From: Patescibacteria group bacterium
Lineage (GTDB): Bacteria > Patescibacteriota > Microgenomatia > UBA12405
Assembly: GCA_038062455.1 (NCBI GenBank)
Contig: JBBTXE010000001.1
Coordinates: 316,371-370,718 of the forward strand
Direction of reading: 5' to 3'
Length of the DNA: 54,348 nt
Position numbers and translations under genes: made by a program
Shown: positions 34,939 to 54,348 of the stretch, piece after piece
How positions within the stretch are numbered: the first letter of the stretch is position 1
How the letters are laid out: every line of letters begins with the position of its first letter
The notes under the pieces: generated by a model
What the model was told of the DNA's origin: nothing
The model's database searches: none
The model's input: the letters and a program-made list of their open reading frames with translations, nothing else

Positions 34939-34955
34939 CCCGCGTTTAACGCGGG
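34939..34955. repeat. Perfect palindromic hairpin at the 3' end of tRNA-Gly
   Basis: CCCGCGTT-T-AACGCGGG; related to the CGCGTTTGACGCG copies at 42336-42447. Confidence 0.8.
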
Positions 34956-35026
34956 AGCGGCTAGAGGGAATCGGACCCTCGACTAATCCTTGGGAAGGAC
35001 TCGTTTTACCACTAAACCATAGCCGC
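34956..35026 (-). tRNA. tRNA-Gly(CCC)
   Basis: Acceptor GCGGCTA/TAGCCGC, anticodon loop ttCCCaa, T-arm GAGGG-TCCGATT-CCCTC. Confidence 0.9.
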
Positions 35027-41870: not shown

Positions 41871-42182
41871 ATGGCGCTTAAATTTACCCACCAAGATTTA
41901 GAATTCAGCGTTGGCGATACCGTCAAGGTCAATTACAAAATCAAAGAAAAGGATAAAGAAAGGATTCAGGCCTTTGATGGAATAATCCTGGCCATCCGAG
42001 GGGCAGGTGACAGTAAATCCTTTTTAGTTGCTAAAAATGCTGCCGATGGAGTTCGGGTTGAACGTATCTTTCCGATTAATTCTCCCTGGATTGATTCAAT
42101 CAAGAAAATCCGCTCTCCTAAAACCAAAATCCGTCGGGCCAAGCTCTATTTCCTGCGCAAACCACACGCCAGAGCTATCTAA
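41871..42182 (+). CDS. rplS: 50S ribosomal protein L19
   Basis: FSVGDTVKV, KERIQAFDG, GVRVERIFP, RRAKLYFLR. Confidence 0.95.
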   Translation: MALKFTHQDLEFSVGDTVKVNYKIKEKDKERIQAFDGIILAIRGAGDSKSFLVAKNAADGVRVERIFPINSPWIDSIKKIRSPKTKIRRAKLYFLRKPHARAI

Positions 42183-42222
42183 TTATCTCTATTTGTCATC
42201 TATCAACCTCTTCATTTCTAAT

Positions 42223-42257
42223 TAATTGATAATTGATAATTGATAATTGATAATTGA
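42223..42257. repeat. Perfect heptamer array (TAATTGA)x5
   Basis: Five exact units ending 6 nt before tRNA-Lys. Confidence 0.9.
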
Positions 42258-42263
42258 CTCATC

Positions 42264-42335
42264 GGGTCCTTAGCTCAGCGGTAGAGCAGCTGCCTTTTAA
42301 GCAGTTGGTCGCGAGTCCGATCCTCGCAGGGCCCA
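42264..42335 (+). tRNA. tRNA-Lys(TTT)
   Basis: Acceptor GGGTCCT/AGGGCCC, anticodon loop ctTTTaa, T-arm GCGAG-TCCGATC-CTCGC. Confidence 0.92.
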
Positions 42336-42369
42336 CCGCGTCAAACGCGGCTTCGCCAGAAGACGAATT

Positions 42370-42472
42370 TGACCGAGTCGCGTTTGACGCGACCGAAATG
42401 AAACAAACTCAATATTATTTCTGACCGAGTCGCGTTTGACGCGACCGAAATGAAACAAACTCAATATTATTT
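42370..42472 (+). repeat. Tandem duplication of 51 bp (period 52) containing a hairpin and the GIY-YIG start codon
   Basis: TGACCGAGTCGCGTTTGACGCGACCGAAATGAAACAAACTCAATATTATTT at 42370-42420 and 42422-42472. Confidence 0.92.
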
Positions 42473-42737
42473 CGTGTACATTCTTTTTTGCTATGGAAAT
42501 GGTCATTTATACATCGGATTCTCATCAAACTACAAACAAAGATTGCTTAAACACCAACAGGGGAAAGTGACCTCAACTAGAAAAAGTTTACCTGTAGAAT
42601 TAATTTATCTCGAGGTGTTTAAAAATATTAAAGACGCTAAAAGTCGTGAGGTGTATTTAAAAAGCGGTAATGGCCGAAAACAACTAAAAGAAATGTTGAA
42701 GAACACTTTAATTGAAAAAAACTATAAATATTTATGA
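42450..42737 (+). CDS. Stand-alone GIY-YIG nuclease
   Basis: YFVYIL...HLYIGFS...RLLKHQQG...ELIYLE...AKSREVYLKSG. Confidence 0.9.
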   Translation: MKQTQYYFVYILFCYGNGHLYIGFSSNYKQRLLKHQQGKVTSTRKSLPVELIYLEVFKNIKDAKSREVYLKSGNGRKQLKEMLKNTLIEKNYKYL

Positions 42738-43342
42738 GTTTTTATGGTTTCATTATCGGCCTTTCCGTTTCCTTAGGTATCTATCTTTTTGAAAAAAGCA
42801 ACACTCTTATCCCCAAAAAACTGGTTAACTTTTTTGTTTTTGGCTTTTTAATTTCCCTTCTTATTGGCGCCCGCCTCTATCATGTCTTTGATCAGTGGAA
42901 TTATTATTCCCAAAACCTCCTCCAAATTCTCAACACTCGGGGCGGGGGATTAGGAATCTATGGCGCCCTGATAGCCGGATTTATGTTTCTCCTATTTTTT
43001 GCCAAAATATATAAAATTCCCTTTCTAAAAATAACTGATCTGTTGACCCCCATCCTACCGCTTTGCCAATCTATCGGCCGTTTTGGCAATTTTTTCAATC
43101 ACGAAATTCCCACTTGGTGGCTGGAAGCTTCCCTAAATTTACTTCTCTTTTTTCTTCTCAAAAAATCCAAAAACCCCACTGCTCATTATTTAATTGCTTA
43201 TGGCTTAATTCGCTTTTTTATTGAATTCTTTCGAAATGACACTTGGACCATCAATCACCTCAAAATCGCCCAACTGATCAGTTTTATCTGTATTTTTTTT
43301 GGTTTATTCCTTTTGCAAAAGCCTCGTCGAATAGGGGATTAG
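42734..43342 (+). CDS. lgt: Prolipoprotein diacylglyceryl transferase (short)
   Basis: FYG, IGARLYHV, GGLGIYGA, QSIGRFGNFFNHE, RFFIEFFR. Confidence 0.88.
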   Translation: MSFYGFIIGLSVSLGIYLFEKSNTLIPKKLVNFFVFGFLISLLIGARLYHVFDQWNYYSQNLLQILNTRGGGLGIYGALIAGFMFLLFFAKIYKIPFLKITDLLTPILPLCQSIGRFGNFFNHEIPTWWLEASLNLLLFFLLKKSKNPTAHYLIAYGLIRFFIEFFRNDTWTINHLKIAQLISFICIFFGLFLLQKPRRIGD

Positions 43343-44395
43343 CCTTTCATAAACACCTGCTGATTTTGCCTTATTTACGGTAATTAGGTTGCAAATATTT
43401 TTCAATTCTTGATTACTCAAACCCACACTTTTTAATTCCTCCTCTGAGGCTTTTAATGGCATTTTCGGCCCTCCCAAAAATGTCCCCGTCCAATTACAGC
43501 GAATACAAACCTTATTCAATTTATCTCCAAAAAATTTTCTAATAAAACGATGTAATTCCTCGTCTACCACCTGATTTTTATTCGCCGTCGGGTAAGGGGA
43601 ATAATATCGCAAAGGTTTGGTACTTTCCAAAAGAGCACTGCAACAACCACCCACAAACTTAATTCCCATTTCTTGACAAGCCAAACTAATCACCCTCATC
43701 CCAAAAGCGGTGGCCATTGGGGCAATTGTCACTACCGTCTTGGGAACACAACCAATATTTAACAGTTCCTCCAACATTTTAACATGCTGCATCCCTGAAG
43801 CTACCGGATCACTAATATATAAAACTTCCAAATTTATTAAATTGAAACCTTCCAAATTAGGCTTAACCGACAATTGCGATTCTCGGGTATAGATATTCCC
43901 TGCCGCCTTGTGACTCATCGCCACAATTGTTGAGGGAATATTTTTCTTTTCATCCACCAAATAAACTGCCCTTTGCCAATTAGTTAAATGACCCTCCCTA
44001 GCAAAATAAATTATTCCCGAATTATCAGCATTCGACTTTTCAATTAGCTCTCTCATCTTCGGACTATTGGCCAACTGATACATAGCTACTTCCATATCTA
44101 ATTGTGCCAACGGTCCAAAGTGATACCTTGGTAAAACAAATTTATTATCATGATCAAAACCTCCCGCACCGCTAATAATTTCCATTTCCGGACTGGAAAC
44201 TGCCACTACTCCCATTGCTTCCATAAAAGCAAACTCGCTTTTTTCCCCCAAAACAGACAAATAAATCCGGTGATTTTTTATTCGGTATTTACCCCTTACC
44301 CCAATTCCAACTATTTCACTTAATTGTTCTTCTTCGACCTGCGCCGCAATTTTAAAAAAAATACTTTGTTTATTTCCAGGTTGATTATCTGTCAT
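43304..44395 (-). CDS. Divergent type I phosphoribosyltransferase (UPRT-like)
   Basis: YFAREG and LYISDPVASG...PKTVVTIAPMAT resemble the UPRT ILRAG and VDPMLATG motifs. Confidence 0.5.
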   Translation of the reverse strand: MTDNQPGNKQSIFFKIAAQVEEEQLSEIVGIGVRGKYRIKNHRIYLSVLGEKSEFAFMEAMGVVAVSSPEMEIISGAGGFDHDNKFVLPRYHFGPLAQLDMEVAMYQLANSPKMRELIEKSNADNSGIIYFAREGHLTNWQRAVYLVDEKKNIPSTIVAMSHKAAGNIYTRESQLSVKPNLEGFNLINLEVLYISDPVASGMQHVKMLEELLNIGCVPKTVVTIAPMATAFGMRVISLACQEMGIKFVGGCCSALLESTKPLRYYSPYPTANKNQVVDEELHRFIRKFFGDKLNKVCIRCNWTGTFLGGPKMPLKASEEELKSVGLSNQELKNICNLITVNKAKSAGVYERLIPYSTRLLQKE

Positions 44396-44445
44396 CCTGA
44401 AATTCCATTTTAACAGAATTTATATCCCACCACAATCAAATAATT

Positions 44446-44454
44446 TGATAAAAT
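44446..44454 (+). promoter_or_regulatory. Extended -10 promoter (TGATAAAAT), probably the original tRNA-Glu promoter
   Basis: Ends 9 nt before the first tRNA 5'-like fragment at 44464. Confidence 0.5.
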
Positions 44455-44463
44455 ATCAGCCAC

Positions 44464-44824
44464 GGCTCCACCGTTGCCGACCTGGCTCCATCGTTGCCGG
44501 TTGCAGCAAAGCTGCACCGAGCATTCTCGGTCCGGCTAAAGCCGAGACCGGAACTAGTGGCTTAAGCAACATGCATTGCTGTTACATTCTTAAATCCTTC
44601 ACTGATAATTCGTATTATGTGGGGTCTACCAACAACTTAACCAATCGTCTCAATTTTTACAACCGGGGAAAATCCCGATATACCAAAAGAAAAATACCTT
44701 GGGTTTTGATATACTCAGAATGCTTTTCAACCCTATCTTTGGCAAGAAAAAGGGAATATCAATTAAAGTCTTGGAAGAATAGGGATTCATTGGAAAGATT
44801 AATCAAAAAATCTGGCTCCATCGT
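44464..44824 (+). mobile_element. Putative GIY-YIG cassette inserted in the 5' end of tRNA-Glu
   Basis: CTGGCTCCATCGT at 44482-44494 is identical to 44812-44824 (tRNA 5' end); hairpin cluster and nuclease gene lie between them. Confidence 0.6.
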
Positions 44825-44828
44825 CTAG
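44571..44828 (+). CDS. Stand-alone GIY-YIG nuclease
   Basis: CYILKS..DNSYYVGSTNNLTNRL...RYTK...WVLIYSE...ARKREYQLKSWK. Start ATG 44571; stop lies inside tRNA-Glu. Confidence 0.88.
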   Translation: MHCCYILKSFTDNSYYVGSTNNLTNRLNFYNRGKSRYTKRKIPWVLIYSECFSTLSLARKREYQLKSWKNRDSLERLIKKSGSIV

Positions 44829-44887
44829 TGGCCTAGGACACCTGGCTTTCATCCAGGTAATCGGGGGTTCGACTCCCCCTGGAGTCA
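44814..44887 (+). tRNA. tRNA-Glu(TTC)
   Basis: Acceptor GGCTCCA/TGGAGTC, anticodon arm CCTGG-ctTTCat-CCAGG, T-loop TTCGACT. Confidence 0.95.
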
Positions 44888-45012
44888 CACAGAGGGAATT
44901 CGCGTCAGGACAGGGTACGCGACGCCGCGTGAGTACGGCCGCGCGAAGCGTCGCAAACGGCTTTTTTAAATCGTCCTTCAAAAAAAATGAAAACGAAAAA
45001 TTTGAGTAACAT

Positions 45013-46371
45013 ATGAAAAAATTTATTATATATTGTAGAAAATCCACAGATGAGAAAGACAAGCAGGTTTTGTCGATCGAAGCCCAGATTACCGAACTTA
45101 CCGAATATGCCAAACGAGAACGACTCGAAATAGTTGAAGTCATCAACGAAGCCAAAACCGCCAAAGTCCCCGGCCGAGAAATATTTAACCAAGTCTTGTC
45201 CAAAATCGAATCAGGTCAGGCCAACGCCATTTTATCGTGGCATCCCGACCGATTGGCTCGTAATAGTATCGATGGTGGAAAAATTATCTACCTACTTGAT
45301 ACTGGCCATCTTGTCGACCTTAAATTTCCCTCTTTTTGGTTTGAAAATACACCACAAGGCAAATTTATGCTCTCGATAGCCTTTGGCCAGTCCAAATATT
45401 ATGTCGATAATTTATCCGAGAATGTTAAACGAGGCAATCGACAAAAAATCCGAAATGGCGTTTGGCCCAACAAAGCTCCCATTGGCTACGACAATGACAG
45501 GCTAACCAAAACTATCCACATCAATCCAGAAAAAGCTAAAGCTGTCAAAAAAGCCTTCGAAATGTTTATCGCTGGTCAAACATTTACCCAACTATCCCTA
45601 TTTATGGCCAAATACGGCATTACTCGAGGTAACGGTAAACCAAAGGCCATAAACCAAGTTCGCAGAATGTTGTGTAAAAAGTTTTACATCGGCATTCTTG
45701 ATTATGGCGGTGAGAAATCAAAAGGGATTCATAAATGTTTTATTGATCGAAAGCTTTTTGACAAGGCCCAAGAACGACTCGAATATTTAAATCATCCTCG
45801 ACCTCATGGCCATTATTTTGCTTTTTCTGGATTGATGAAATGTGGGGAGTGTGGTGCTTCGATAACTGCCGAGACAAAAACCAAACATTATCTTCGCACC
45901 AATCGCGACGCTACCTACACCTATTATCGCTGTACCAAAAAACTAAAACCTTGCTCCCAGCACTATATTAACGAGTCAAAGTTAGTTGACCAGGTGGCGC
46001 AGCAAGTTAGTCTCGCCTCACTCCCCACATCGTGGGTAAAACAATGGCAGCAATGGCTAGAACGAGACAGAGTAGCCGAGGAGCAATCTGGGCAACAAAA
46101 CCTGTTGTCTTTGGACAATGATATTCAAACAATTGATCTGAAAATGGGCAAACTACTTGACGCTTACCTTGACGACACCATTGAAGAAAGCATTTACAAG
46201 AACAAAAAGAATCAATTGTTTGAAGAAAAATTAAAAATGGAAGAGAAAAAAGCCAAAACAGAGGGTTGCGGTTCGAGTTGGCTCGAACCTTTTTCTGAAT
46301 TTATTATTGGCGCACAGAATGCGCCAAATCGCGCGCGCAAAAAAGAAAATTCCGCGAAGGCGGAATTATAG
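45013..46371 (+). CDS. Large serine recombinase, C-terminus probably disrupted
   Basis: YCRKS (catalytic Ser), DRLARN, recombinase domain (APIGY), Zn ribbon CGECG...YYRC...PC, coiled coil. Confidence 0.88.
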   Translation: MKKFIIYCRKSTDEKDKQVLSIEAQITELTEYAKRERLEIVEVINEAKTAKVPGREIFNQVLSKIESGQANAILSWHPDRLARNSIDGGKIIYLLDTGHLVDLKFPSFWFENTPQGKFMLSIAFGQSKYYVDNLSENVKRGNRQKIRNGVWPNKAPIGYDNDRLTKTIHINPEKAKAVKKAFEMFIAGQTFTQLSLFMAKYGITRGNGKPKAINQVRRMLCKKFYIGILDYGGEKSKGIHKCFIDRKLFDKAQERLEYLNHPRPHGHYFAFSGLMKCGECGASITAETKTKHYLRTNRDATYTYYRCTKKLKPCSQHYINESKLVDQVAQQVSLASLPTSWVKQWQQWLERDRVAEEQSGQQNLLSLDNDIQTIDLKMGKLLDAYLDDTIEESIYKNKKNQLFEEKLKMEEKKAKTEGCGSSWLEPFSEFIIGAQNAPNRARKKENSAKAEL

Positions 46372-46571
46372 ATAACGCGAACAGCTAGGCCCACCGGTGC
46401 GGGCGGCGGGCCGACGCTGTGAGCTCAATATTTAAAAGTTATTTTTAAAAAACGTTCGAATTTCGTTATAACAGCTCACCAAAAAGGAAATCGAGTCGGA
46501 AGTGGGGGCAGCGCTGGCTGCGCCCCCCTCCGCAGACAGCGCTGCCCCTTCCACTTTTGCGATTTCCAAAA

Positions 46572-46680
46572 TGGTGAACGTTTTTGAACAAATTCGAACG
46601 CATTTCAAAGATTCGTGCTAGCTCGCCTCGCCCTGCTCGGCTCGCACTCCAGCGCGGCGCCCCCACCCGACGCGCCTCCG
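46572..46680 (+). repeat. 109-bp inverted repeat, left arm
   Basis: Reverse complement of 47654-47762 with 2 mismatches by manual comparison. Confidence 0.92.
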
Positions 46681-46907
46681 AAAAAGTCGGCTCGAACATT
46701 CCGCTGAAAGCGGAACAAAGAAAAACGCAAAAATTTTAAAGAGCTTTTATCAACTTAAATGGCGCAACCGGTGGTATCAGCAAGAATTGCGTCTCACTGT
46801 CCGATTGCGCCATTAAAAAAAGCAATTTCAATAATAACTGAGTCCAATATAACTATACTAAAAATGAACAAAAAAAGAAAGAATTTAATACTTGATTTCT
46901 AAAAAAG

Positions 46908-46916
46908 TGATATAAT
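46908..46916 (+). promoter_or_regulatory. Extended -10 promoter (TGATATAAT) for the cargo gene
   Basis: Ends 9 nt before ATG 46926. Confidence 0.6.
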
Positions 46917-46925
46917 AAACTCTAT

Positions 46926-47585
46926 ATGGAATCATTTCTTTTTGTTTTGGGAGCCTTATTCGTTGTAACGTTCGTAATACTGTATTTTTGGAGCGTTGTT
47001 TGGAGCTATAAGGATGCTTCAATTAGAGGTAAGAACGGTTTCGCGGTAGCGACTTTGGTTGCGCTGTTCGCATGGCCATTTGGTTTATTGTTTTGGACCA
47101 TCATTCGTCCTGAAAATGTTAAGCTAAAAGATAGCCCCTCGGCTATTAAAAAAAATACCCAACCTAACAAGTACATATCTGATTTTAAAGAAATGCCTTT
47201 TTTGTTAAAAATCCTTTTTCTAATTAGTGTATATTCATTCGTCACCACACTATTGAATTTTATTCAGATGAAACCTGTTGTCTTTGAGTATTTTAATACA
47301 GGATTTCCAAAAAACTTTCCTCTAATCTGGTATTCATACTACCTACTATTTAACATTTTTACGATAATAGTATATTTCAAACGATCTTATTCCGTTTTGA
47401 AAAAATATCTGTATGTAACTCTAGGCGTTTTAGTCGTTGCTTTACTTAACTCAATTTACTTCGTAATTAATCTTCCTGTAGAACAAAGATTTGCTACCAC
47501 CTTAGTGTATCTATTTACCTATATCTTTGGTGGTTTAATCTTCATATACCAACTCAAGCAAAAGAAGTATTTTAATCAAGCTTAA
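46926..47585 (+). CDS. Hypothetical polytopic membrane protein (cargo between the inverted repeats)
   Basis: About 6 hydrophobic segments; N-terminal W.YKDA..RG..G motif; own promoter and a 3' hairpin at 47612-47630. Confidence 0.75.
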   Translation: MESFLFVLGALFVVTFVILYFWSVVWSYKDASIRGKNGFAVATLVALFAWPFGLLFWTIIRPENVKLKDSPSAIKKNTQPNKYISDFKEMPFLLKILFLISVYSFVTTLLNFIQMKPVVFEYFNTGFPKNFPLIWYSYYLLFNIFTIIVYFKRSYSVLKKYLYVTLGVLVVALLNSIYFVINLPVEQRFATTLVYLFTYIFGGLIFIYQLKQKKYFNQA

Positions 47586-47653
47586 ATCTTTTTTGGACTT
47601 ATATTATTTCATTGTTTGCTTCGCAAACAAAAATCGCGCGCGCAAAAAATGAG

Positions 47654-47762
47654 CGGAGGCGCGGCGGGTGGGGGCGCCGCGCTGGAGTGCGAGCCGAGCA
47701 GGGCGAAGCGAGCTAGCACGAATCTTTGAAATGCGTTCGAATTTGTTCAAAAACGTTCACCA
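47654..47762 (-). repeat. 109-bp inverted repeat, right arm
   Basis: Reverse complement of 46572-46680. Confidence 0.92.
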
Positions 47763-47788
47763 ACTATATCCATCTGCGGTATCATTAA

Positions 47789-49570
47789 TTGATGGCAAAC
47801 GATTCTAAGTCCCTAAAAACCATTTTTAAAAACACCGCCTGGTGCCTTAGGTTAATCTATCGGAGCAATAAGGTATTATTCACTGGCGTTTTTATTTTCG
47901 GCATCTTTGTTTCCGTCGTCCCCTTTTTCCAAAACCGAGTTTTTTCCCAACTCATCGATAGTTTAGTTTATGGCCAAACTTACTGGATAACCACCTTCTT
48001 TTTGTTTATTGGTATCATGGCCCTAAACTCAACCTTTTTTTATCTTCAAAGTCAGCTAAACCGGGTTCTCGATATCCAACTTCAAGCCCATCTCCGCAAA
48101 CTATTCATCGGCAAAGTCACCACTCTTGACTATCAACACCTAGAAGGTAAGGACACTAGTAATTTAATCTCCAAAGTGGACGAAGAATTTGGCTGGCGAA
48201 TCCGCCAGACCCTTTCCGACGCCAACAGCATCTTTACCAGTCTTCTAAGCCTTCTGACTGTTTCTATAATTCTTCTACCGAAATTCCCCTTTCTTTGGTT
48301 AATTATTTTTTTAAGTCAAGTTCCTCAATACTTTTTTCAAAAACATTGGGTCCAAAAAGACTGGCAAATCCATGAGAAAAACAGCGATAAAACCAAATTA
48401 ATGTGGGATCTTAACTATCAGCTTCGCCAAAAGTTCTACATTTCTGAACTAAGAATTAACAACGCTATTAAATATCTATTCAAAAAATTTTCTGATAACT
48501 TTGATTTTTTTGCCATTTCCCGAACTACCCTTCGGATCCAACAAACCCCCACCGAATTCGGCCTGATCACCTTTTCCACCTTAATTAACGCCTTTTGTCT
48601 CTATACTCTAATTTCCAGCACCCATTCAGGTCTAATCACCATTGGCCTCTTCACCTTTTACTTCCAATCAATTACCCAAACCGGCAATTTCTTCCGGGGC
48701 CTTGTTTTTAGCTCTGTCAGTGTTACTGAAAATAGTTATCATATCGGCAACTTTAAAAAAGTACTTAATTTAAAAAATTTAATTAAAAGCGGATCCAAAC
48801 TTGTTCCTCGTCCCCACCCCCCCAAAATTGAATTTATTAACGTTAGTTTTAAATATCCCAATTCCAGCCACTATGTCTATCGCCACCTCAATCTAACCAT
48901 CAACCCTCAAGAGGAAATTGCCATTGTCGGTCAAAATGGGGCCGGTAAAAGTACTCTTATCAAACTCTTGTGTCATTTTTATGAACCCAGCTCCGGAAAA
49001 ATCCTTATCAATGGCATCGATTTAAGACAATTAAAACTCGAAAACTGGTATCACCAACTTTCCTTTTTGGCTCAAGAATTTAACAGTTTCTACAACTTAA
49101 CCCTCCGCGAAAATATATTTTTGGGCCGGCCCCAAAAAATCAACAATCAAAAAATTATGGCAGCCTTAAAACAAGCCGATGCCACCTTTATCAAAAGATA
49201 CCCCCGGAACTTAGATACTCCCATGAGCCAGCGTTATGGCGGCGAAGAACCCTCCTGGGGACAAGCCCAAAAAATTGCCATCGCCCGGGTTTTTTATCGT
49301 AATAGCCCAATAATTGTCTTAGATGAACCCACTGCTTCTATCGACGCTATTTCTGAAAGTAAAATTTTTAGCCGGCTTTATAAAACTATTAAAAACAAAA
49401 CCTTAATTATCGTCTCTCACCGTTTTTCAACTGTCAGAAACGCCCAACGGATTATCGTTATCAATCATGGTCAAATCATTGAACAGGGGACTCATCGGCA
49501 ACTTCTAGCCCTCAAAGGTCTCTACGCCCGCTCTTTTCATCTCCAAGCCAAAGGTTATACTCAAGAATAA
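47789..49570 (+). CDS. ABC exporter (fused TMD-NBD)
   Basis: TM domain, Walker A GQNGAGKST, Q-loop LAQE, variant signature PSWGQ, Walker B IIVLDEPT, H-loop VSHR. Confidence 0.92.
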   Translation: MMANDSKSLKTIFKNTAWCLRLIYRSNKVLFTGVFIFGIFVSVVPFFQNRVFSQLIDSLVYGQTYWITTFFLFIGIMALNSTFFYLQSQLNRVLDIQLQAHLRKLFIGKVTTLDYQHLEGKDTSNLISKVDEEFGWRIRQTLSDANSIFTSLLSLLTVSIILLPKFPFLWLIIFLSQVPQYFFQKHWVQKDWQIHEKNSDKTKLMWDLNYQLRQKFYISELRINNAIKYLFKKFSDNFDFFAISRTTLRIQQTPTEFGLITFSTLINAFCLYTLISSTHSGLITIGLFTFYFQSITQTGNFFRGLVFSSVSVTENSYHIGNFKKVLNLKNLIKSGSKLVPRPHPPKIEFINVSFKYPNSSHYVYRHLNLTINPQEEIAIVGQNGAGKSTLIKLLCHFYEPSSGKILINGIDLRQLKLENWYHQLSFLAQEFNSFYNLTLRENIFLGRPQKINNQKIMAALKQADATFIKRYPRNLDTPMSQRYGGEEPSWGQAQKIAIARVFYRNSPIIVLDEPTASIDAISESKIFSRLYKTIKNKTLIIVSHRFSTVRNAQRIIVINHGQIIEQGTHRQLLALKGLYARSFHLQAKGYTQE

Positions 49571-50559
49571 TGCCAAATACTTTTCAAAGTTCAATTCCTA
49601 ATAAAATTCAACAATATCTTTCAGACCAACTCCAAAGTCTGAAAAAATCTTCCAATATTAACCCTGGTTCCCAAGATCTTTCCTCTTTCATTTATCAAGC
49701 CCTAACTACTACTAAGTATCGCCGCCACTCCATTTCCCTTGAATATCAGACCCACATAAAAAACGTTATTGGTTTCTCAATAAAAAACAATCGACCTATC
49801 CCTTTAGTTTGGGTCTTTGGTTGTTACAAACTTTGGCGACTTCCAGAATCGCCTTATGTCGATTGGGCTGAGCTTTTCTTTTTAATCCATAAGGTCAATT
49901 GGCTTAGGCCTGTCCTGGAGGTATATAAACCCGGAATTTGGTTTGATTTTTTTGCCGACGGCATTGTTGTCCCACTACTAAATCATATTCCCGAATCAGA
50001 TATGGATACCTATCAAGAGAGTTTTAAAGACTTGCTGACAATTTTTGAAAAATATATACCCAAAAATTTAAAATTCACCCTACACACTCTCGAAAAACTT
50101 TATAGTTCAAAAAAAGATTTTCAAAAAGAATTTAAGACAAATTACGATATTGTTGTCCAACAAGATAAAACAAATCCTTTTATTTTATCTGACCAGCAGA
50201 AATCAGTTATCAAAATGAACGTCAAATCAGACAAAGAACTAAGTGAGGCCAAATTACATCAATCCCAATTAATTTTCGAAGCCTTTGTTTTAAGCTCTAA
50301 ACGCCGGCCATATTATCGAACCCCTGATAAAATTTTTTTGGACAGTTTTCCCATAAAAAATTGCCTTCCCATTGGCACCACCCGAACCTCCTCTGTCAGG
50401 TTTTGGGTAGGCAAGGGGGTGTTAGAAAAACACCAAGACTCATTTATAGAAACCATTCTATCTGTCAATCAAGTCCAAAACTCCCGATTCTCAAGTTGCT
50501 CTGTTAATCTCCCTGATTTTGACAACCCAAATTATAAATCGATCAGTATTTTAAAATAA
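49570..50559 (+). CDS. Divergent PvcA/Dit1 (isonitrile synthase)-like protein
   Basis: PIPLVWVFGCYK...VDWAE...VYKPG...FADG...MDTYQ parallels PvcA PIxFVLPAFPxK...PDMAE...FYAPG...CSDG...AYQ. Start overlaps the ABC stop. Confidence 0.5.
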   Translation: MPNTFQSSIPNKIQQYLSDQLQSLKKSSNINPGSQDLSSFIYQALTTTKYRRHSISLEYQTHIKNVIGFSIKNNRPIPLVWVFGCYKLWRLPESPYVDWAELFFLIHKVNWLRPVLEVYKPGIWFDFFADGIVVPLLNHIPESDMDTYQESFKDLLTIFEKYIPKNLKFTLHTLEKLYSSKKDFQKEFKTNYDIVVQQDKTNPFILSDQQKSVIKMNVKSDKELSEAKLHQSQLIFEAFVLSSKRRPYYRTPDKIFLDSFPIKNCLPIGTTRTSSVRFWVGKGVLEKHQDSFIETILSVNQVQNSRFSSCSVNLPDFDNPNYKSISILK

Positions 50560-51179
50560 TGCTTTACATTTTTCATGGCGATGATCTATACCACAGCCGG
50601 GAAGCCCACCAAAATTTTCTTGATCAATTTAAAGACAAAGAAATTCTGCGCCAGGAATACAAAGACTTTGATTTTGAATTACTAAACCTTTTTGTCAACT
50701 CTCCCTCCCTTTTCCAAAACACGCGGATTCTCGCCCTCTACTCTCCCTTTTCTCTTCTAAAAAACCAATTAGAAACGCTGTCTTCCCTTATAAAAGAAAA
50801 TCAGTACACTGACACCGTTATCTGGCAGGACCGGCCTCTTCGTCAAAACGAAGTTTCTTTTTTTGGCCCAGCCAAGCTTCAAAAGTTTCCCTTAGACAAA
50901 CAGCTTTTTTTCTGTCTGAATTCCCTAAAACCTCGAAATCACCGTCTCTTTACCCAAATATTTTTAAAAGTCATCAAACAGGAACCATTTGAACTGGTCT
51001 TTTTTTGGTTTAAAAACCGTCTCCGCCAAAATTTGTCATCTTTTTCCCCTTTTCCGCCAGAAAAGCTCAAATCAAGCTATCTAGCCCTGATTGACCTTGA
51101 TTATCAAATTAAAACCGGCGCTCTTTCGGAGCCCAAAGAAAACGCCCTCCTCAATCTCCTTTTTAATCTAATGTCTTAG
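50559..51179 (+). CDS. holA: DNA polymerase III delta subunit-like
   Basis: MLYIFHGDD, SPSLF, C-terminal LIDLDYQIKTG. Confidence 0.7.
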   Translation: MLYIFHGDDLYHSREAHQNFLDQFKDKEILRQEYKDFDFELLNLFVNSPSLFQNTRILALYSPFSLLKNQLETLSSLIKENQYTDTVIWQDRPLRQNEVSFFGPAKLQKFPLDKQLFFCLNSLKPRNHRLFTQIFLKVIKQEPFELVFFWFKNRLRQNLSSFSPFPPEKLKSSYLALIDLDYQIKTGALSEPKENALLNLLFNLMS

Positions 51180-51211
51180 TATCGCCTCTTTTTTTCTGGT
51201 ATCATTTTTTA

Positions 51212-51613
51212 ATGTCCCCAAAAATTATCAAACCCTGGGGGTTTGAAATTCTGACTACTCCAAAAGATCTCCCTTATTCCGGCAAAATTTCTTTTACTCA
51301 AGCCGGCCATCGTTGGTCACTCCAATATCACGACCAAAAAATTGAAACTCTGGTTCTCCTTTCCGGCCAAGCCAATCTAAGCCTCGGTCCAGACCCCAAT
51401 TCTCTCGTCACCCTCCCCATGGAAATAAATCAAGAATACACCATTAAACCCCCAACTATCCACCGTTTTCAAGCAATTACCAATTGTGTCACTGTTGAAT
51501 TTTCCACTCCGGAAACCGGTACCACCATCCGCCTGGAAGACGACGATTCCCGTCCCAATGAAACAGACGCCACCAGATTATTACCCAACCGTGGTTGGCA
51601 ACCGCCAAAATAA
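51212..51613 (+). CDS. Cupin (mannose-6-phosphate isomerase C-terminal-like)
   Basis: KPWGFE, WSLQYHDQKIET, IKPPTIHR, VEFSTPE. Confidence 0.75.
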   Translation: MSPKIIKPWGFEILTTPKDLPYSGKISFTQAGHRWSLQYHDQKIETLVLLSGQANLSLGPDPNSLVTLPMEINQEYTIKPPTIHRFQAITNCVTVEFSTPETGTTIRLEDDDSRPNETDATRLLPNRGWQPPK

Positions 51614-51614
51614 T

Positions 51615-53918
51615 ATGAAAACCCCTGCCCTTATTTGGTTTAAAGATATTAAATTCGCAGATGTCGCTGTTGTCGGCGGCAAAGGTGCTAATTTAGGAGA
51701 AATGTATAGTCTCGGTATCCCCGTCCCCAACGGTTTTGTCGTCACCGCCAAAACCTACTTTGACTTTATCGACACTAATAGTCTAAAACCTCAAATAAAA
51801 AACATTTTAGACTCGGCTAATGTTGACCATCCCGACGAATTACTGACTGCCTCCAAAAAAATCAAAACCATTATCAAAAAAGCCCCGATTCTCGATAGTG
51901 TCGCCATTGAAATTATGACTGCCTACAAAAAGTTGGGGGGCTTTGGCGGTCTGAAAGATTTACCGGTGGCGGTCAGATCATCGGCTACCGCCGAAGACAG
52001 TGCCGATGCCTCTTTTGCCGGCCAACAGGAAACCTTTCTCAATGTTATCGGCGAAACTAATGTCCTAAATCGGGTTCGTGATTGCTGGGCCTCGCTTTTT
52101 ACCCCCCGGTCAATTTTTTACCGGGTCAAAAAAAATTTTGATCACTTCAAAGTTGGTGTAGCCGTTCCGGTTCAAAAAATGGTTCAAAGTGACATTTCCG
52201 GAATTATGTTCACTGTCAATCCGGTCTCCAACACCAAAAATGAAATTGTGATTGAAACCGTCTGGGGTCTTGGTGAATATATAGTTCAGGGAATTATCAC
52301 CCCTGACCAACACATTATCAACAAATCAACCTGGGAAATCCAATCCAAAAATTCGACTTTTCAGGACCGGCAGTTAGTCAAATCCGAAAACGAAACCCAC
52401 GAAGCCAAAGTTCCTAAATACAAACAAAATAAATTCAAAATCGATGATCGGACCGCCGTTAAGATAGCTAAGATTGGCCAAAAACTCCATAACCACTACG
52501 GCAAAGCCCAGGACATTGAATTTGCCATCGAAAAGGGTAAATTATTTATTGTTCAAACCCGACCCATTACTACCTTAAACAATGTCAATCTCGCTAACAC
52601 TGTCATCCCCGCGGACGCGGGGACCCCATTCTTAATTGGAGAGGCTGCCAGCCCCGGATTTGCCTCAGGACCGGTAATCCTTATTGATAGTCCCAAAGAA
52701 ATTAACCGTGTAGTTTCCGGCCAAATTATGGTCATCAGCATGACCACCCCCGATTTTGTTCCCGCCATGAAAAAAGTTTCCGGAATAATTACCGACAAAG
52801 GCGGCCAAACCTCTCACGCCGCCATCGTTTCCCGGGAATTAGGAGTTCCCTGTGTTGTCGGCACTAAAACCGCTACCAAAGAATTAAAGGAAGGGGATAT
52901 CGTCACTCTAGACGGTGCCAGTGGCCGAATTTGGAAAGGAGATCTAACCGAAAGTAACCCTCAAATTCCCAAAGATCTAGAGCTCCATAGCTCTAAAGCT
53001 CTACTAAAAACTGCCACTAAGCTTTATGTTAATTTAGGTGAACCGGAACTGGCCAAAGATATCAGTAAAAAAAATGTTGACGGGGTCGGGCTTCTGCGGG
53101 CTGAATTCATGATGGCCAACATCGGCATCCACCCCAAGCGGATGATCTCTGAAGGTAGAGAAAAAGAATATATTGAAACTCTGGCTAAGGGGATTCTCGA
53201 ATTTTGCAAAAATTTTAATCCCCGGCCGGTTCTTTATCGAACTACTGACTTTAAAACTAATGAATACCGCTTTCTCCGCTACGGTAAACTCTACGAACCG
53301 GAAGAACCCAATCCTCTTTTAGGTTTTCGCGGCGCTATCCGCTATATTAATTCCCCTGAAGTCTTTCAAATGGAACTGGAGGCCGTCAAGGTAGTCCGAA
53401 ACCGCTTTAGTCTAAAAAATCTCTGGCTGATGATTCCTTTTTGCCGTACTCCCGGGGAACTTTTCGAAGTTAAAAAAATAATCGCCGCCGCCGGACTGCT
53501 CCGCAGCCCCAGTTTCAAACTTTTCATGATGGCCGAAATCCCCAGCAATGTCATTCTTCTTGATAAATTTATTGACGTCGGCATCGACGGTATTTCTATT
53601 GGCAGCAACGATTTAACTATGTTGACTCTGGGTCTTGACCGCGACAATTCTGAAGTCGCCAAAGGTTTCAGTGAAATGGATCCGGCCATACTTTGGAGCT
53701 TAAAAAGATTAATTACTAAAGCCAAAAAACGGGGCATTTTAGTCTCTATCTGCGGCCAGGCGCCAAGTAATTATCCTGAACTCGTCGAAAAATTAGTTAA
53801 GTGGGGAGTTAGTAGTATCTCCGTTTCCCCTGATGCGATTGACCGCACCCGCGAAATTATCTCCTGGGCCGAAAAAAGAAAAATTCTATCCCCGCGAAAG
53901 CGGGGATCCACACTCTGA
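51615..53918 (+). CDS. ppsA: Phosphoenolpyruvate synthase (pyruvate, water dikinase)
   Basis: VGGKGANLGEM, VAVRSSATAED, QDIEFA, VQTRPIT, GGQTSHAAIVSRELG (phospho-His), GVGLLRAEF, SIGSNDLT. Start ATG 51615. Confidence 0.95.
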   Translation: MKTPALIWFKDIKFADVAVVGGKGANLGEMYSLGIPVPNGFVVTAKTYFDFIDTNSLKPQIKNILDSANVDHPDELLTASKKIKTIIKKAPILDSVAIEIMTAYKKLGGFGGLKDLPVAVRSSATAEDSADASFAGQQETFLNVIGETNVLNRVRDCWASLFTPRSIFYRVKKNFDHFKVGVAVPVQKMVQSDISGIMFTVNPVSNTKNEIVIETVWGLGEYIVQGIITPDQHIINKSTWEIQSKNSTFQDRQLVKSENETHEAKVPKYKQNKFKIDDRTAVKIAKIGQKLHNHYGKAQDIEFAIEKGKLFIVQTRPITTLNNVNLANTVIPADAGTPFLIGEAASPGFASGPVILIDSPKEINRVVSGQIMVISMTTPDFVPAMKKVSGIITDKGGQTSHAAIVSRELGVPCVVGTKTATKELKEGDIVTLDGASGRIWKGDLTESNPQIPKDLELHSSKALLKTATKLYVNLGEPELAKDISKKNVDGVGLLRAEFMMANIGIHPKRMISEGREKEYIETLAKGILEFCKNFNPRPVLYRTTDFKTNEYRFLRYGKLYEPEEPNPLLGFRGAIRYINSPEVFQMELEAVKVVRNRFSLKNLWLMIPFCRTPGELFEVKKIIAAAGLLRSPSFKLFMMAEIPSNVILLDKFIDVGIDGISIGSNDLTMLTLGLDRDNSEVAKGFSEMDPAILWSLKRLITKAKKRGILVSICGQAPSNYPELVEKLVKWGVSSISVSPDAIDRTREIISWAEKRKILSPRKRGSTL
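52602..52628. repeat. REP-like palindrome, in frame inside ppsA
   Basis: GTCA-TCCCCGC-GGAC-GCGGGGA-CCCCA, encoding VIPADAGTP. Confidence 0.75.
53888..53910. repeat. REP-like palindrome forming the ppsA C-terminus
   Basis: ATCCCCGC-GAAA-GCGGGGAT-CCA, encoding SPRKRGS. Confidence 0.8.
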
Positions 53919-53951
53919 AATTTGCACCACTACCTGTTAGCAACGAGCTTC

Positions 53952-53997
53952 GTCATTCCCGCGAAAACGGATGTCACCCTCGCGTATGCGGGGGCCT
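53952..53997. repeat. Two degenerate REP-like copies
   Basis: GTCATTCCCGCGAAAACGG and GTCACCCTCGCGTATGCGGGGGCCT. Confidence 0.75.
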
Positions 53998-54001
53998 ATA
54001 T

Positions 54002-54292
54002 CTACATCAATATTTTTTCATACAAATCATTCCAATCTTTATTTTGCTTCTCAATCAACTCAATTTTCCAAATTCTTCTCCATTTTTTCAATTGTTTTTC
54101 TCTTTTAATTGCTTGATTTATATTGTTATGTTCTTCAAAGTAAACCAACCCATGAACACCATACTCTTTTGTAAATCCATCGATAATTTCATTTCTATGT
54201 TCAAATACTCTTCTTTTTAGGTCAGATGTCACTCCAATATACAATGTCCCATTTTTTCTACTTGCCATCATATATACAAAACAATTTTTCAT
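54002..54292 (-). CDS. Stand-alone GIY-YIG nuclease (REP-flanked type)
   Basis: FVYMMASRKNGTLYIGVTSDLKRRVFEH...GFTKEYGV..LVYFE...AIKREKQLKKWRR.WKIELIE..N..WNDLY. Confidence 0.93.
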   Translation of the reverse strand: MKNCFVYMMASRKNGTLYIGVTSDLKRRVFEHRNEIIDGFTKEYGVHGLVYFEEHNNINQAIKREKQLKKWRRIWKIELIEKQNKDWNDLYEKILM

Positions 54293-54326
54293 TATTTAAA
54301 AATTAGCATACTTTAGCAACACGCCT

Positions 54327-54348
54327 GTCATTCCCGCGAACGCGGGAA
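54327..54348. repeat. REP-like palindrome at the window end
   Basis: GTCA-TTCCCGC-GAAC-GCGGGAA, cut by the window edge. Confidence 0.85.

Follow-up and report, generated by a model that had tools for sequence, protein, structure and literature searches.

The window, which is the whole stretch of 54,348 nucleotides that was analysed, contains three solo GIY-YIG genes at the places given in an earlier note on this DNA. All three are intact open reading frames for single-domain proteins of 85-96 aa that match Pfam PF01541: gene 42450 (42450-42737, + strand; 95 aa; E 2.7e-13), gene 44571 (44571-44828, + strand; 85 aa; E 7.9e-18) and gene 54002 (54002-54292, - strand; 96 aa; E 3.3e-14, over residues 4-74). 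PF01541 is the sole match in each product and the only domain in that of gene 54002, for which a sub-threshold match to T5orf172 was also obtained. The tRNA genes and direct repeats beside them are also as the note had described. Gene 42450 has tRNA-Lys(UUU) (42264-42337, + strand; ARAGORN; Rfam, 67 bits) directly on its 5' side, the stop codon of gene 44571 is overlapped by a complete tRNA-Glu(UUC) (44814-44888, + strand; ARAGORN, Rfam), and gene 54002 stands between direct repeats of the form TTAGCAAC-N6/7-GTCATTCCCGCG at 53937-53963 and 54313-54338. The statement that no transposase is nearby has to be corrected, as a large serine recombinase gene (45013-46371) begins 125 nt past tRNA-Glu. 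It is the sole recombinase among the ORFs scanned, and no match to the HUH/Y1 family was found in the three GIY-YIG products or in the seven neighbouring ORFs scanned. In the whole genome, five of the nine solo GIY-YIG genes have a tRNA gene on their own strand at most 150 nt away (binomial P = 7.5e-8). Identity between copies in this genome is only 30-46%, and there has therefore been no recent burst. The three genes of the window are two different things, an Ssn-family gene (54002) and two UPF0213/Slx1-like cassettes (42450 and 44571).

Gene 54002 and the Ssn family

Ssn nucleases bind flanking NTS/SRM hairpins and cut single-stranded DNA beside them (Chenal et al., Nat Commun 2025, PMC11893778). 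They cleave neither dsDNA nor RNA, and in Neisseria they reduce transformation by NTS-flanked DNA (PMC11893778). The family is delimited as single-domain GIY-YIG proteins of <150 aa within the cd10448 clade, homologous to SsnA of N. meningitidis at E < 1e-10, and the NTS consensus is CGTCATTCCCGCGMAVGCGGGAATCYRG (PMC11893778). Judged from its sequence, gene 54002 is a predicted Ssn-family ssDNA nuclease with flanking NTS/SRM hairpins, and this part of the locus is already known biology (PMC11893778). In our tree the gene falls inside a 28-row Ssn-type clade (support 99), and genes 42450 and 44571 fall outside it (99% branch support). Its homologues occur in many phyla, are 55-89% identical and carry GTCAT-type hairpin motifs in their flanks in 50 of 80 cases; a PDB sequence search with gene 54002 gave no match. 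The 3' flank (53937-53999, + strand) contains TTAGCAAC, a half-decayed NTS, GTCATTCCCGCGAAAACGG (53952-53970), and a single match to the published degenerate SRM regex (53972-53999). The 5' flank (54313-54348, + strand) contains TTAGCAAC and the 22-nt NTS GTCATTCCCGCGAACGCGGGAA, and is cut by an assembly gap at the end of the window, which leaves the SRM regex incomplete there. A syntenic relative (L086) has an intact NTS on either side, in the order NTS(+)-gene-NTS(-). Gene 54002 was already at its place beside ppsA when a species ~80% identical in DNA split off.

The GTCATTCCCGCG repeat of gene 54002 has ~12 dispersed copies in the genome, and nearly all NTS copies share a single strand of a contig whose GC skew is uniform. 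A second Ssn paralogue (C2:29399) is flanked by GTCATTGCGAG..GCAATC, which is outside the published SRM search motif and is present in ~14 copies, in inverted pairs. At C1:193932/194004, one inverted repeat pair encloses no gene. The genome resembles the published Ssn systems in having single-domain GIY-YIG proteins of ~100 aa with cognate flanking hairpins, with a canonical NTS core at gene 54002, and in holding more than one cognate protein/repeat pair (gene 54002 and the gene on contig C2). Genes 42450 and 44571 differ from Ssn not only in lying outside the clade but also in their flanks, which give no match to the SRM regex within 500 bp, and in being tied to tRNA genes; the term tRNA has no occurrence in the Ssn paper (PMC11893778).

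The cassettes at tRNA-Lys and tRNA-Glu

Cassette 1 (42338-42733, + strand) fills the space between tRNA-Lys and lgt, the prolipoprotein diacylglyceryl transferase gene (42734-43342, + strand; PF01790, E 1.4e-40), and consists of hairpin 1, a spacer, hairpin 2 (twice) and the GIY-YIG ORF. Hairpin 1, CCGCGTCAAACGCGG (42336-42350, + strand), as read from the sequence, begins at the terminal CC of tRNA-Lys and is identical in the cassette of a congener, G009. A perfect 52-bp tandem duplication follows (42370-42473, + strand; copies 42370-42421 and 42422-42473), each copy of which carries hairpin 2 (GTCGCGTTTGACGCGAC) plus the first eight codons, so that an 8-codon uORF (42398-42424) arises from copy 1. 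That the duplication is an assembly artefact was rejected, as its junction is spanned by contigs of four runs (three studies) and the 52-nt unitig has double the depth. The stop codon of gene 42450 overlaps the lgt start (ATGA), and the gene is sister to that of the G009 tRNA-Lys cassette (support 96). In 16 of 18 congeners nothing is inserted at tRNA-Lys|lgt, and lgt begins 0-5 nt past tRNA-Lys; the site is occupied in G000 and G009, which belong to different major clades of the Lgt tree, a single-gene tree. The insertion at this site is without target duplication.

Cassette 2 is more elaborate. At its left end, a copy of tRNA-Glu nt 1-11 (GGCTCCATCGT; 44484-44494, + strand) follows a tRNA promoter-like extended -10, and an extra partial copy of this left junction, GGCTCCACCGT + TGCCGA, precedes it (44464-44480, + strand). 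A twin hairpin, TGCCGG ... CCGAGCATTCTCGG ... CCGGAA (44495-44553, + strand), separates nt 11 from nt 12 of the partial tRNA copy, and a diverged copy of tRNA-Glu nt 12-28 (the D arm; 44554-44570, + strand) then reaches the ATG of gene 44571. The last five codons and the stop of this gene are inside the complete tRNA-Glu, which forms the right end of the cassette. The same order (tRNA nt 1-11, twin hairpin, nt 12-28, ORF, complete tRNA) is fixed in the Glu cassettes of 10 genomes. In the 10 orthologous cassettes, 98% of the cells of the twin hairpin are paired, with compensatory change at 6 pairs (0/500 shuffles). An ORF-less relic (L172) still carries the hairpin together with the partial copy of the tRNA. 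At tRNA-Glu(CUC), a relative (G003) holds a cassette with a 77% identical protein, and this genome has no cassette at the orthologous site.

The hairpin-rich leaders of genes 42450 and 44571 fold more stably as ssDNA than shuffled sequences do (z -5.4 and -3.6; 0/200 shuffles each), and match no known RNA family, as an Rfam scan of 42150-45050 returned two tRNAs and nothing else. By sequence, the two proteins are closest to UPF0213 and to the nuclease domain of Slx1, with PDB 1ywl (E 6.4e-6) matched by gene 42450 and 1zg2 (E 3.4e-5) by gene 44571. The fold predicted for gene 44571 points the same way, since Foldseek placed chains of 1zg2, 1ywl and Slx1 (TM 0.6-0.67) ahead of I-TevI for its AF2 model (pLDDT 85). 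The protein has Tyr where the seven other aligned members of its subclade have an invariant His, and this copy may be weakened by the change. Slx1 depends on Slx4, contains a RING/zinc-finger domain and cleaves DNA with branches or stem-loops. We know of no report of UPF0213 or Slx1 as part of a mobile cassette.

The earlier note had given each of the three genes a palindrome family of its own and compared them with REP-RAYT systems. Part of this comparison holds, as a small GIY-YIG nuclease is paired with a cognate hairpin, for which the evidence in relatives of gene 54002 is experimental (PMC11893778). Of the three genes, only gene 54002 has a dispersed, REP-like family. For gene 42450, the hairpin 1 family has one further copy in the genome, a solo insertion of 19 nt with the core CCCGCGTTAAACGCGGG (34939-34957, - strand) directly past tRNA-Gly; in three other genomes, including two from Shapirobacteria, nothing but CCT separates tRNA-Gly from tRNA-Thr. 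Looser CGCGTTCGACGCG palindromes are present at a few other places. For gene 44571, a search of this genome revealed no dispersed copies of the hairpins; the twin hairpin is single-copy here, although orthologous cassettes in other genera have kept it. When every GTDB species genome was scanned with the core of the twin hairpin, 16 matches were obtained. Nine of them are genuine, and all nine lie in Glu/Gln cassettes or in a relic of these; seven look like chance hits in unrelated coding sequence. The REP-like reading was therefore dropped for gene 44571. We accordingly regard it as unlikely that each protein is a transposase-like mobiliser of its own dispersed palindromes, in the way that RAYT is for REP. 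The two Ssn paralogues with their own dispersed repeats, the gene-less inverted pair and the precise solo insertion past tRNA-Gly do speak for such a role, and the same idea was raised in the Ssn paper, where the analogy with REP-RAYT and IS200 is already discussed (PMC11893778). Against it stand the copy numbers of the cassette hairpins (one clear extra copy and none, as against ~12 NTS copies) and the hypothetical status of Ssn-driven repeat spread. The chemistry is a further objection, since GIY-YIG enzymes act on DNA by hydrolysis and make no covalent intermediate through which a strand could be transferred.

Association of the cassettes with tRNA genes in relatives

Among the relatives sampled, 53 of 62 UPF0213-like cassette-type genes adjoin a tRNA gene, 52 of them on the same strand, whereas none of 80 Ssn-type genes does. 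The identity of the tRNA changes 10 times on the protein tree compared with 30 times when the labels are shuffled (0/500), and tRNA-specific subclades are found for Glu, Ile, Ala, Leu, Asn, Arg and Lys. The check that the earlier note had proposed, of protein clade against flank, is positive, but what covaries with genes 42450 and 44571 is the adjoining tRNA's identity together with a hairpin inside the cassette, rather than a dispersed REP-like family. Relatives have between 0 and 11 copies per genome, and the tRNA-lodged layout recurs across bacterial phyla. Partial tRNA copies were looked for at the Lys, Gln and Met cassettes of this genome, which are of the 3' type, and none was found. In the literature searched, we found no description of the tRNA-lodged solo GIY-YIG layout, the only relevant report being the Ssn paper (PMC11893778).

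The cassettes are ~330-400 bp, lie on the strand of the tRNA behind the tRNA promoter, have conserved hairpin(s) at their 5' junction, and each leaves a complete tRNA and the neighbouring gene intact. Their position suggests that the nuclease is probably made from the tRNA transcript. The one RNA run listed contains only the tRNA part. The strict same-strand placement would also be expected if the genes served the host, with UPF0213-like nucleases processing tRNA transcripts or, where tRNA genes are highly transcribed, repairing structured DNA, and with the tRNA operon providing co-expression. The ORFs are intact, with catalytic residues conserved across genera, cassette divergence resembles that of host genes, and UPF0213 is a single chromosomal gene in many bacteria (a Pfam control matched 12 of 14 model genomes). 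A housekeeping enzyme would, however, not need one paralogue per tRNA gene, and we find a host function improbable given that identical sites vary in presence and absence among congeners, that genomes differ so widely in copy number, that each copy is at a different tRNA, and that partial tRNA duplicates and ORF-less relics are found.

Slightly less probable still is that the cassettes are passive cargo, moved or kept by tRNA-targeting integrases or by recombination between tRNA copies, with a nuclease that limits incoming ssDNA or acts in defence. The tRNA genes are integration hot spots in this genome, where the serine recombinase past tRNA-Glu has two paralogues beside other tRNAs, and the effect of Ssn on transformation with NTS-flanked DNA (PMC11893778) would agree with such a role. 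The recombinase, nevertheless, is found beside tRNA-Glu in two relatives (G007 and G020) without any GIY-YIG gene, and among the cassette loci fetched it is present only in this genome's own. We therefore rejected it as the mover of the cassettes; it is part of a separate element. Moreover, the cassettes are small and hold no gene besides the nuclease, and the nuclease subclades follow tRNA identity, which is unexpected for cargo.

Occupied and empty alleles, subclades that track the tRNA, covarying hairpins and decayed derivatives exist, and the mobility of the cassettes at genes 42450 and 44571 is well supported. The cassettes may instead be old and vertically inherited, with precise loss happening repeatedly, since their divergence is no lower than that of the surrounding genes: G000 and G003 are 76% identical in nucleotides for both, and between G000 and G009 the nucleases are 55% and the Lgt proteins 61% identical in amino acids.

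Proposed mechanism and relation to known elements

The likely explanation, in our opinion, is that two types of minimal GIY-YIG element are present here, an Ssn/NTS unit at gene 54002 and UPF0213/Slx1-like tRNA cassettes that spread selfishly in a homing-like manner. We infer a role of the nuclease in the mobility of the cassettes. In the proposed mechanism, the nuclease would nick or cut DNA that is structured or single-stranded, either at the tRNA gene or at the hairpin, and repair or recombination with a cassette-bearing copy, which might arrive via DNA uptake, would then copy the cassette in, with the tRNA sequence as a homology arm. A simple form of immunity, in which insertion destroys the target, fails to explain the layout of cassette 2, as the nt 11/12 site that is split by the hairpin in the partial copy is still whole in the complete tRNA beside it.

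A parallel in genomic setting is provided by free-standing homing genes of the Seg type. For instance, SegB of phage T4 is a free-standing GIY-YIG homing endonuclease gene within a tRNA gene cluster, and the spread of such genes is thought to use break repair from the occupied allele. As in the cassettes, a GIY-YIG gene stands alone beside tRNA genes, not in an intron, and is polymorphic in presence and absence between relatives. Occupied and empty alleles at one precise site, as expected of a homing gene, are found at both tRNA-Lys|lgt and tRNA-Glu(CUC). Seg proteins are >200 aa with a DNA-binding domain, whereas the cassette proteins are bare catalytic domains of 85-95 aa that lack a homing-type DNA-binding domain; unlike Seg genes, the cassettes are chromosomal in many bacterial phyla, and contain conserved hairpins and often partial tRNA duplicates. 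In Allomyces atp6, a mobile endonuclease ORF brings a replacement end for the mitochondrial gene that it invades. There too, the host gene is kept working by a second copy of the displaced segment, and the displaced piece persists as a remnant; the cassettes differ in that the target is a tRNA gene, the ORF is unfused and the unit includes a structured hairpin. With REP/BIME-RAYT and IS200/IS605 TnpA, the elements of this genome share a small enzyme gene with hairpin repeats, recognition at the level of ssDNA, to which the strand bias of the NTS copies points, and, at the tRNA-Lys site, the lack of a target duplication. These systems use an unrelated enzyme, an HUH Y1 transposase with a covalent intermediate, and the tRNA cassettes have hairpins that are not spread over the genome. 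As GIY-YIG enzymes are hydrolytic, RAYT-like cut-and-paste is unlikely, and a homing or repair-mediated route fits better.

We tentatively propose, as a broader reading that we hold with less confidence, that bare UPF0213/Slx1-like nucleases and their cognate hairpins may be widespread, undescribed, minimal autonomous mobile elements (~330-400 bp). Such elements would recognise shape (hairpins or the extruded cloverleaf of a tRNA gene), invade tRNA genes yet keep them whole, and give rise to non-autonomous relics in the form of solo hairpins and partial tRNA copies, and Ssn/NTS would be a sister system with a dispersed-repeat route. Small GIY-YIG proteins of the UPF0213/COG2827 type are among the commonest "hypothetical nucleases" of bacterial genomes, and to our knowledge have no assigned function. 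Their reproducible link to tRNA genes across phyla, with empty sites, specificity of clades for tRNAs and conserved hairpins, suggests that UPF0213-type proteins are selfish tRNA-riding cassettes. If this is true, many odd tRNA fragments and duplicated pieces in the genomes of uncultured bacteria would be explained, the Ssn principle of a one-domain nuclease that reads a hairpin would be extended to a second branch of the superfamily, and new structure- or sequence-specific ssDNA tools could possibly be obtained.

Solo GIY-YIG genes and their two kinds of neighbourhood

The genome under study (665 kb in eight contigs, window included) has Candidatus Shapirobacteria (Patescibacteria/CPR) as its closest named relatives. 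It encodes nine solo GIY-YIG genes and no long ones; relatives of the same order carry 0-11 solo genes per genome. The three intact single-domain ORFs that an earlier note had recognised in the window are present: gene 1 at 42450-42737(+), 95 aa; gene 2 at 44571-44828(+), 85 aa; and gene 3 at 54002-54292(-), 96 aa. A same-strand tRNA lies within 150 nt of five of the nine solo genes (P = 7.5e-8, for a chance expectation of 1.4% per gene). No GIY-YIG match of UvrC length was found in this 86%-complete genome; many of its listed relatives have such a protein, of about 410-470 aa.

In a phylogeny of 95 solo GIY-YIG proteins, the deep branches of which are weak because the proteins are short, the genes of the Ssn type (a published family of ssDNA nucleases) form one clade with 99% support, and none of them has a tRNA neighbour. 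Outside this clade 53 of the 63 genes adjoin a tRNA, and the tRNA/no-tRNA label changes 10 times on the tree versus 30 times after shuffling (0/500). The tRNA-linked subclades are each specific for one tRNA identity, i.e. Glu, Ile, Ala, Leu, Asn, Arg or Lys. Two independent samples, one of 27 loci from across phyla and one of 30 from within the order, placed a tRNA within 250 nt, mostly <50 nt, of 53 of 62 genes, 52 of these on the same strand. Genes 1 and 2 belong to this separate, tRNA-tied branch. Their PDB sequence matches were UPF0213 proteins only (1ywl, 1zg2), plus a weak match to Slx1, and the same search with gene 3 gave no match. In its AlphaFold model (pLDDT 85), gene 2 most resembles UPF0213 and the nuclease domain of Slx1, a structure-specific enzyme, with I-TevI ranking behind these.

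Gene 3 and the dispersed repeats

Chenal et al. 2025 (PMC11893778), reached by full-text search with the repeat string of gene 3, described the Ssn family as single-domain GIY-YIG proteins (CDD family cd10448) that act as site-specific ssDNA nucleases and bind a hairpin repeat in their flanks (the NTS, CGTCATTCCCGCGMAVGCGGGAATCYRG; in the general case an SRM); the arrangement NTS-ssnA-NTS was already likened there to insertion sequences and REP/RAYT. tRNA is not mentioned in that paper. Judged by its clade and flanking motifs, gene 3 would be an ordinary member of this family. The direct repeats previously described around it are indeed there, the flanks being cGTCATTCCCGCGAAAACGG and tGTCATTCCCGCGAACGCGGGAA, and an SRM fitting the published degenerate motif directly follows its stop codon. 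Eighty homologues (55-89% identical) are spread over Nitrospirota, Pseudomonadota, Bacteroidota, Chloroflexota and other CPR groups, among further taxa; GTCAT-type hairpin motifs, typically as an inverted pair, occur in one or both flanks of 50 of the 80, and all 80 lack a tRNA within 250 nt. In a Shapirobacteria species with about 80% DNA identity, a counterpart lies at the same place beside ppsA (locus L086), with an intact NTS on each side; gene 3 is therefore an old resident. The same locus shows the sequence that an N-gap hides at the window end. Two NTS-like hairpins lie within the ppsA reading frame, at 52602-52625 (GTCATCCCCGCGGACGCGGGGACC) and at 53885-53907 (ATCCCCGCGAAAGCGGGGATCC), the latter forming the last codons of ppsA.

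Each of the three genes had been thought to possess its own palindrome family; a truly dispersed family exists for gene 3 only. The covariation of protein and repeat proposed at the same time is borne out by two cognate Ssn/repeat pairs in the genome, as a second Ssn-clade gene, on contig C2, sits between inverted copies of a different repeat, GTCATTGCGAG..GCAATC..CCACnnnnGTGG, which has about 14 copies and departs from the published SRM motif. At C1:193932-194014 the C2 repeat forms an inverted pair, about 50 nt apart and with no gene in between, that looks like a gene-less counterpart of this repeat-bracketed gene. The NTS-type copies (GTCATTCCCGCG, with at most one mismatch) lie on the + strand of the 461-kb contig C1 in 12 of 13 cases, and the GC skew of this contig is negative throughout its 461 kb; a bias of this kind would be compatible with activity on a single replication strand or on ssDNA. 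A further palindrome, CCTGCCGGCAGG(CAGG), lies inside the loops of two NTS hairpins (C1:178481 and C1:423051) and has three more copies (C1:16300, C1:448283 and C4:30489), two of them no more than about 40 nt from a tRNA gene (tRNA-Met, tRNA-Ser). In two loci from other genomes (L034, L045) the same 20-bp palindrome is found in partial tRNA-like sequence just 3' of a GIY-YIG gene.

Cassettes lodged at tRNA-Lys and tRNA-Glu

Gene 1 begins 112 nt after the 3' end of tRNA-Lys(UUU). Of 18 genomes of the genus, 16 have an empty tRNA-Lys/lgt junction, with the lgt start codon 0-5 nt after the tRNA, and this spacing, seen in most of the loci compared (L011-L028), implies that the lgt message is leaderless or made by tRNA 3' processing. 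Only the genome under study and G009, a Shapirobacteria MAG (locus L029 is the same sequence), carry an insert. Both inserts start with GCGTCAAACGCGGCTTCGCCA right 3' of the tRNA-Lys end ...CCCACC and finish with a nuclease stop codon that overlaps the lgt ATG, no target duplication accompanies the insertion, and hairpin 2 shows a compensatory pair between the two (GTCGCG/CGCGAC versus GTCACG/CGTGAC). The Lgt tree, a single-gene host tree, separates the two carriers into distinct major clades (support 100/99), which leaves two invasions of this one site or several precise losses of the insert as explanations. Contigs of four groundwater runs (three studies) cross the copy junction of the perfect 52-bp tandem duplication at 42370-42473 and confirm it as real. 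Immediately 5' of tRNA-Lys, at 42222-42256, five tandem TTGATAA units overlap promoter-like hexamers. A 19-nt hairpin of the cassette 1 type (core CCCGCGTTAAACGCGGG) lies directly 3' of tRNA-Gly at 34939-34957. In three other genomes (two from Shapirobacteria) tRNA-Gly and tRNA-Thr are separated by CCT alone, and the hairpin is a precise solo insertion.

Gene 2 ends within tRNA-Glu(UUC), which overlaps its stop codon. Ten cassettes of its subclade (57-77% identical, several genera) share one layout: the promoter region of the tRNA, nt 1-11 of the tRNA, the twin hairpin (about 55 nt; TGCCGR...CGAGCATCCTCG...GGGA), tRNA nt 12 to about 26, the nuclease ATG and, finally, the complete tRNA. The twin hairpin covaries over 17 pairs, with 98% of cells paired and 6 pairs changed on both sides; the covariation score was reached by 0 of 500 shuffles and was lost on sliding the register. 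G-U pairs are almost absent, which fits a hairpin at the DNA level. Folded as ssDNA, the hairpin-rich leaders of gene 1 and gene 2 are much more stable than shuffled sequences (z -5.4 and -3.6). Gene 2-type cassettes have Glu(UUC) or Glu(CUC) as their host tRNA, with Gln(CUG) taking this place in two genomes of Shapirobacteria; one of these two has only an ORF-less relic keeping the hairpin and the partial tRNA copy. This partial copy fits the local tRNA every time, Gln-specific D loop included. A cassette locus in the related genome G003 is orthologous to tRNA-Glu(CUC) of the genome under study (C1:200431-200504), where the site is empty. When all GTDB species genomes were scanned for the twin-hairpin core, genuine matches occurred only in such cassettes or the ORF-less relic. 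Gene 2 itself has Tyr where the other seven aligned members of the subclade have an invariant His. In other subclades, a nuclease gene that follows its tRNA has the partial tRNA copy (nt 43-76) on its downstream side. At tRNA-Tyr of the genome under study two 38-nt copies bracket a unit of nuclease gene and complete tRNA, and may be read as remains of an older tRNA-Tyr gene.

The statement that no transposase is nearby does not survive, as a large serine recombinase gene (45013-46371(+); Resolvase, Recombinase and Zn-ribbon domains) lies 125 nt beyond tRNA-Glu. Its copies next to tRNA-Glu in two congeners are 93-94% identical in protein, against only about 58% for the Lgt of these congeners, so that it resembles an integrative element exchanged not long ago. 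Paralogues with 55% identity, two in number (C1:384856-386187 and C4:28965-30308), adjoin tRNA-Lys(CUU) and tRNA-Ser. Just past the recombinase, a 109-nt inverted repeat (46572-46680 and 47654-47762, 98% complementary, two copies only in the genome) brackets a 219-aa membrane-protein ORF (46926-47585) and could mark an invertible segment or the ends of an integrated element. A tRNA cluster lying 16 kb past the window includes an anticodon-CTA tRNA called by ARAGORN (C1:386510-386585, labelled tRNA-Pyl), a possible amber suppressor.

A proposed homing cycle

The tRNA-lodged cassettes are accessory and sit at exactly defined positions at tRNA genes, on the same strand as the tRNA, where a complete tRNA and the neighbouring gene stay usable. 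Their hairpins are conserved and covary. The cassettes decay to forms that lack the ORF or consist of a hairpin alone, and their proteins diversify along with the tRNA at which they sit. Cassette divergence is about that of the flanking genes, which argues against very recent transfer. We found no description of such cassettes in the literature searched. Their closest published relatives in kind are the Ssn/SRM system, free-standing GIY-YIG homing genes like SegB of T4, and mobile ORFs of mitochondria that supply a replacement end for the gene; REP/RAYT, with which the earlier note had compared them, is a relative by analogy only. We propose that the nuclease is made from the tRNA transcript and, by analogy with Ssn and Slx1, would nick structured or single-stranded DNA at the hairpin or the tRNA gene. 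Repair by recombination with a cassette-bearing copy, with tRNA sequence serving as the homology, would then spread the cassette, and gain, decay and loss would together make up a homing cycle.
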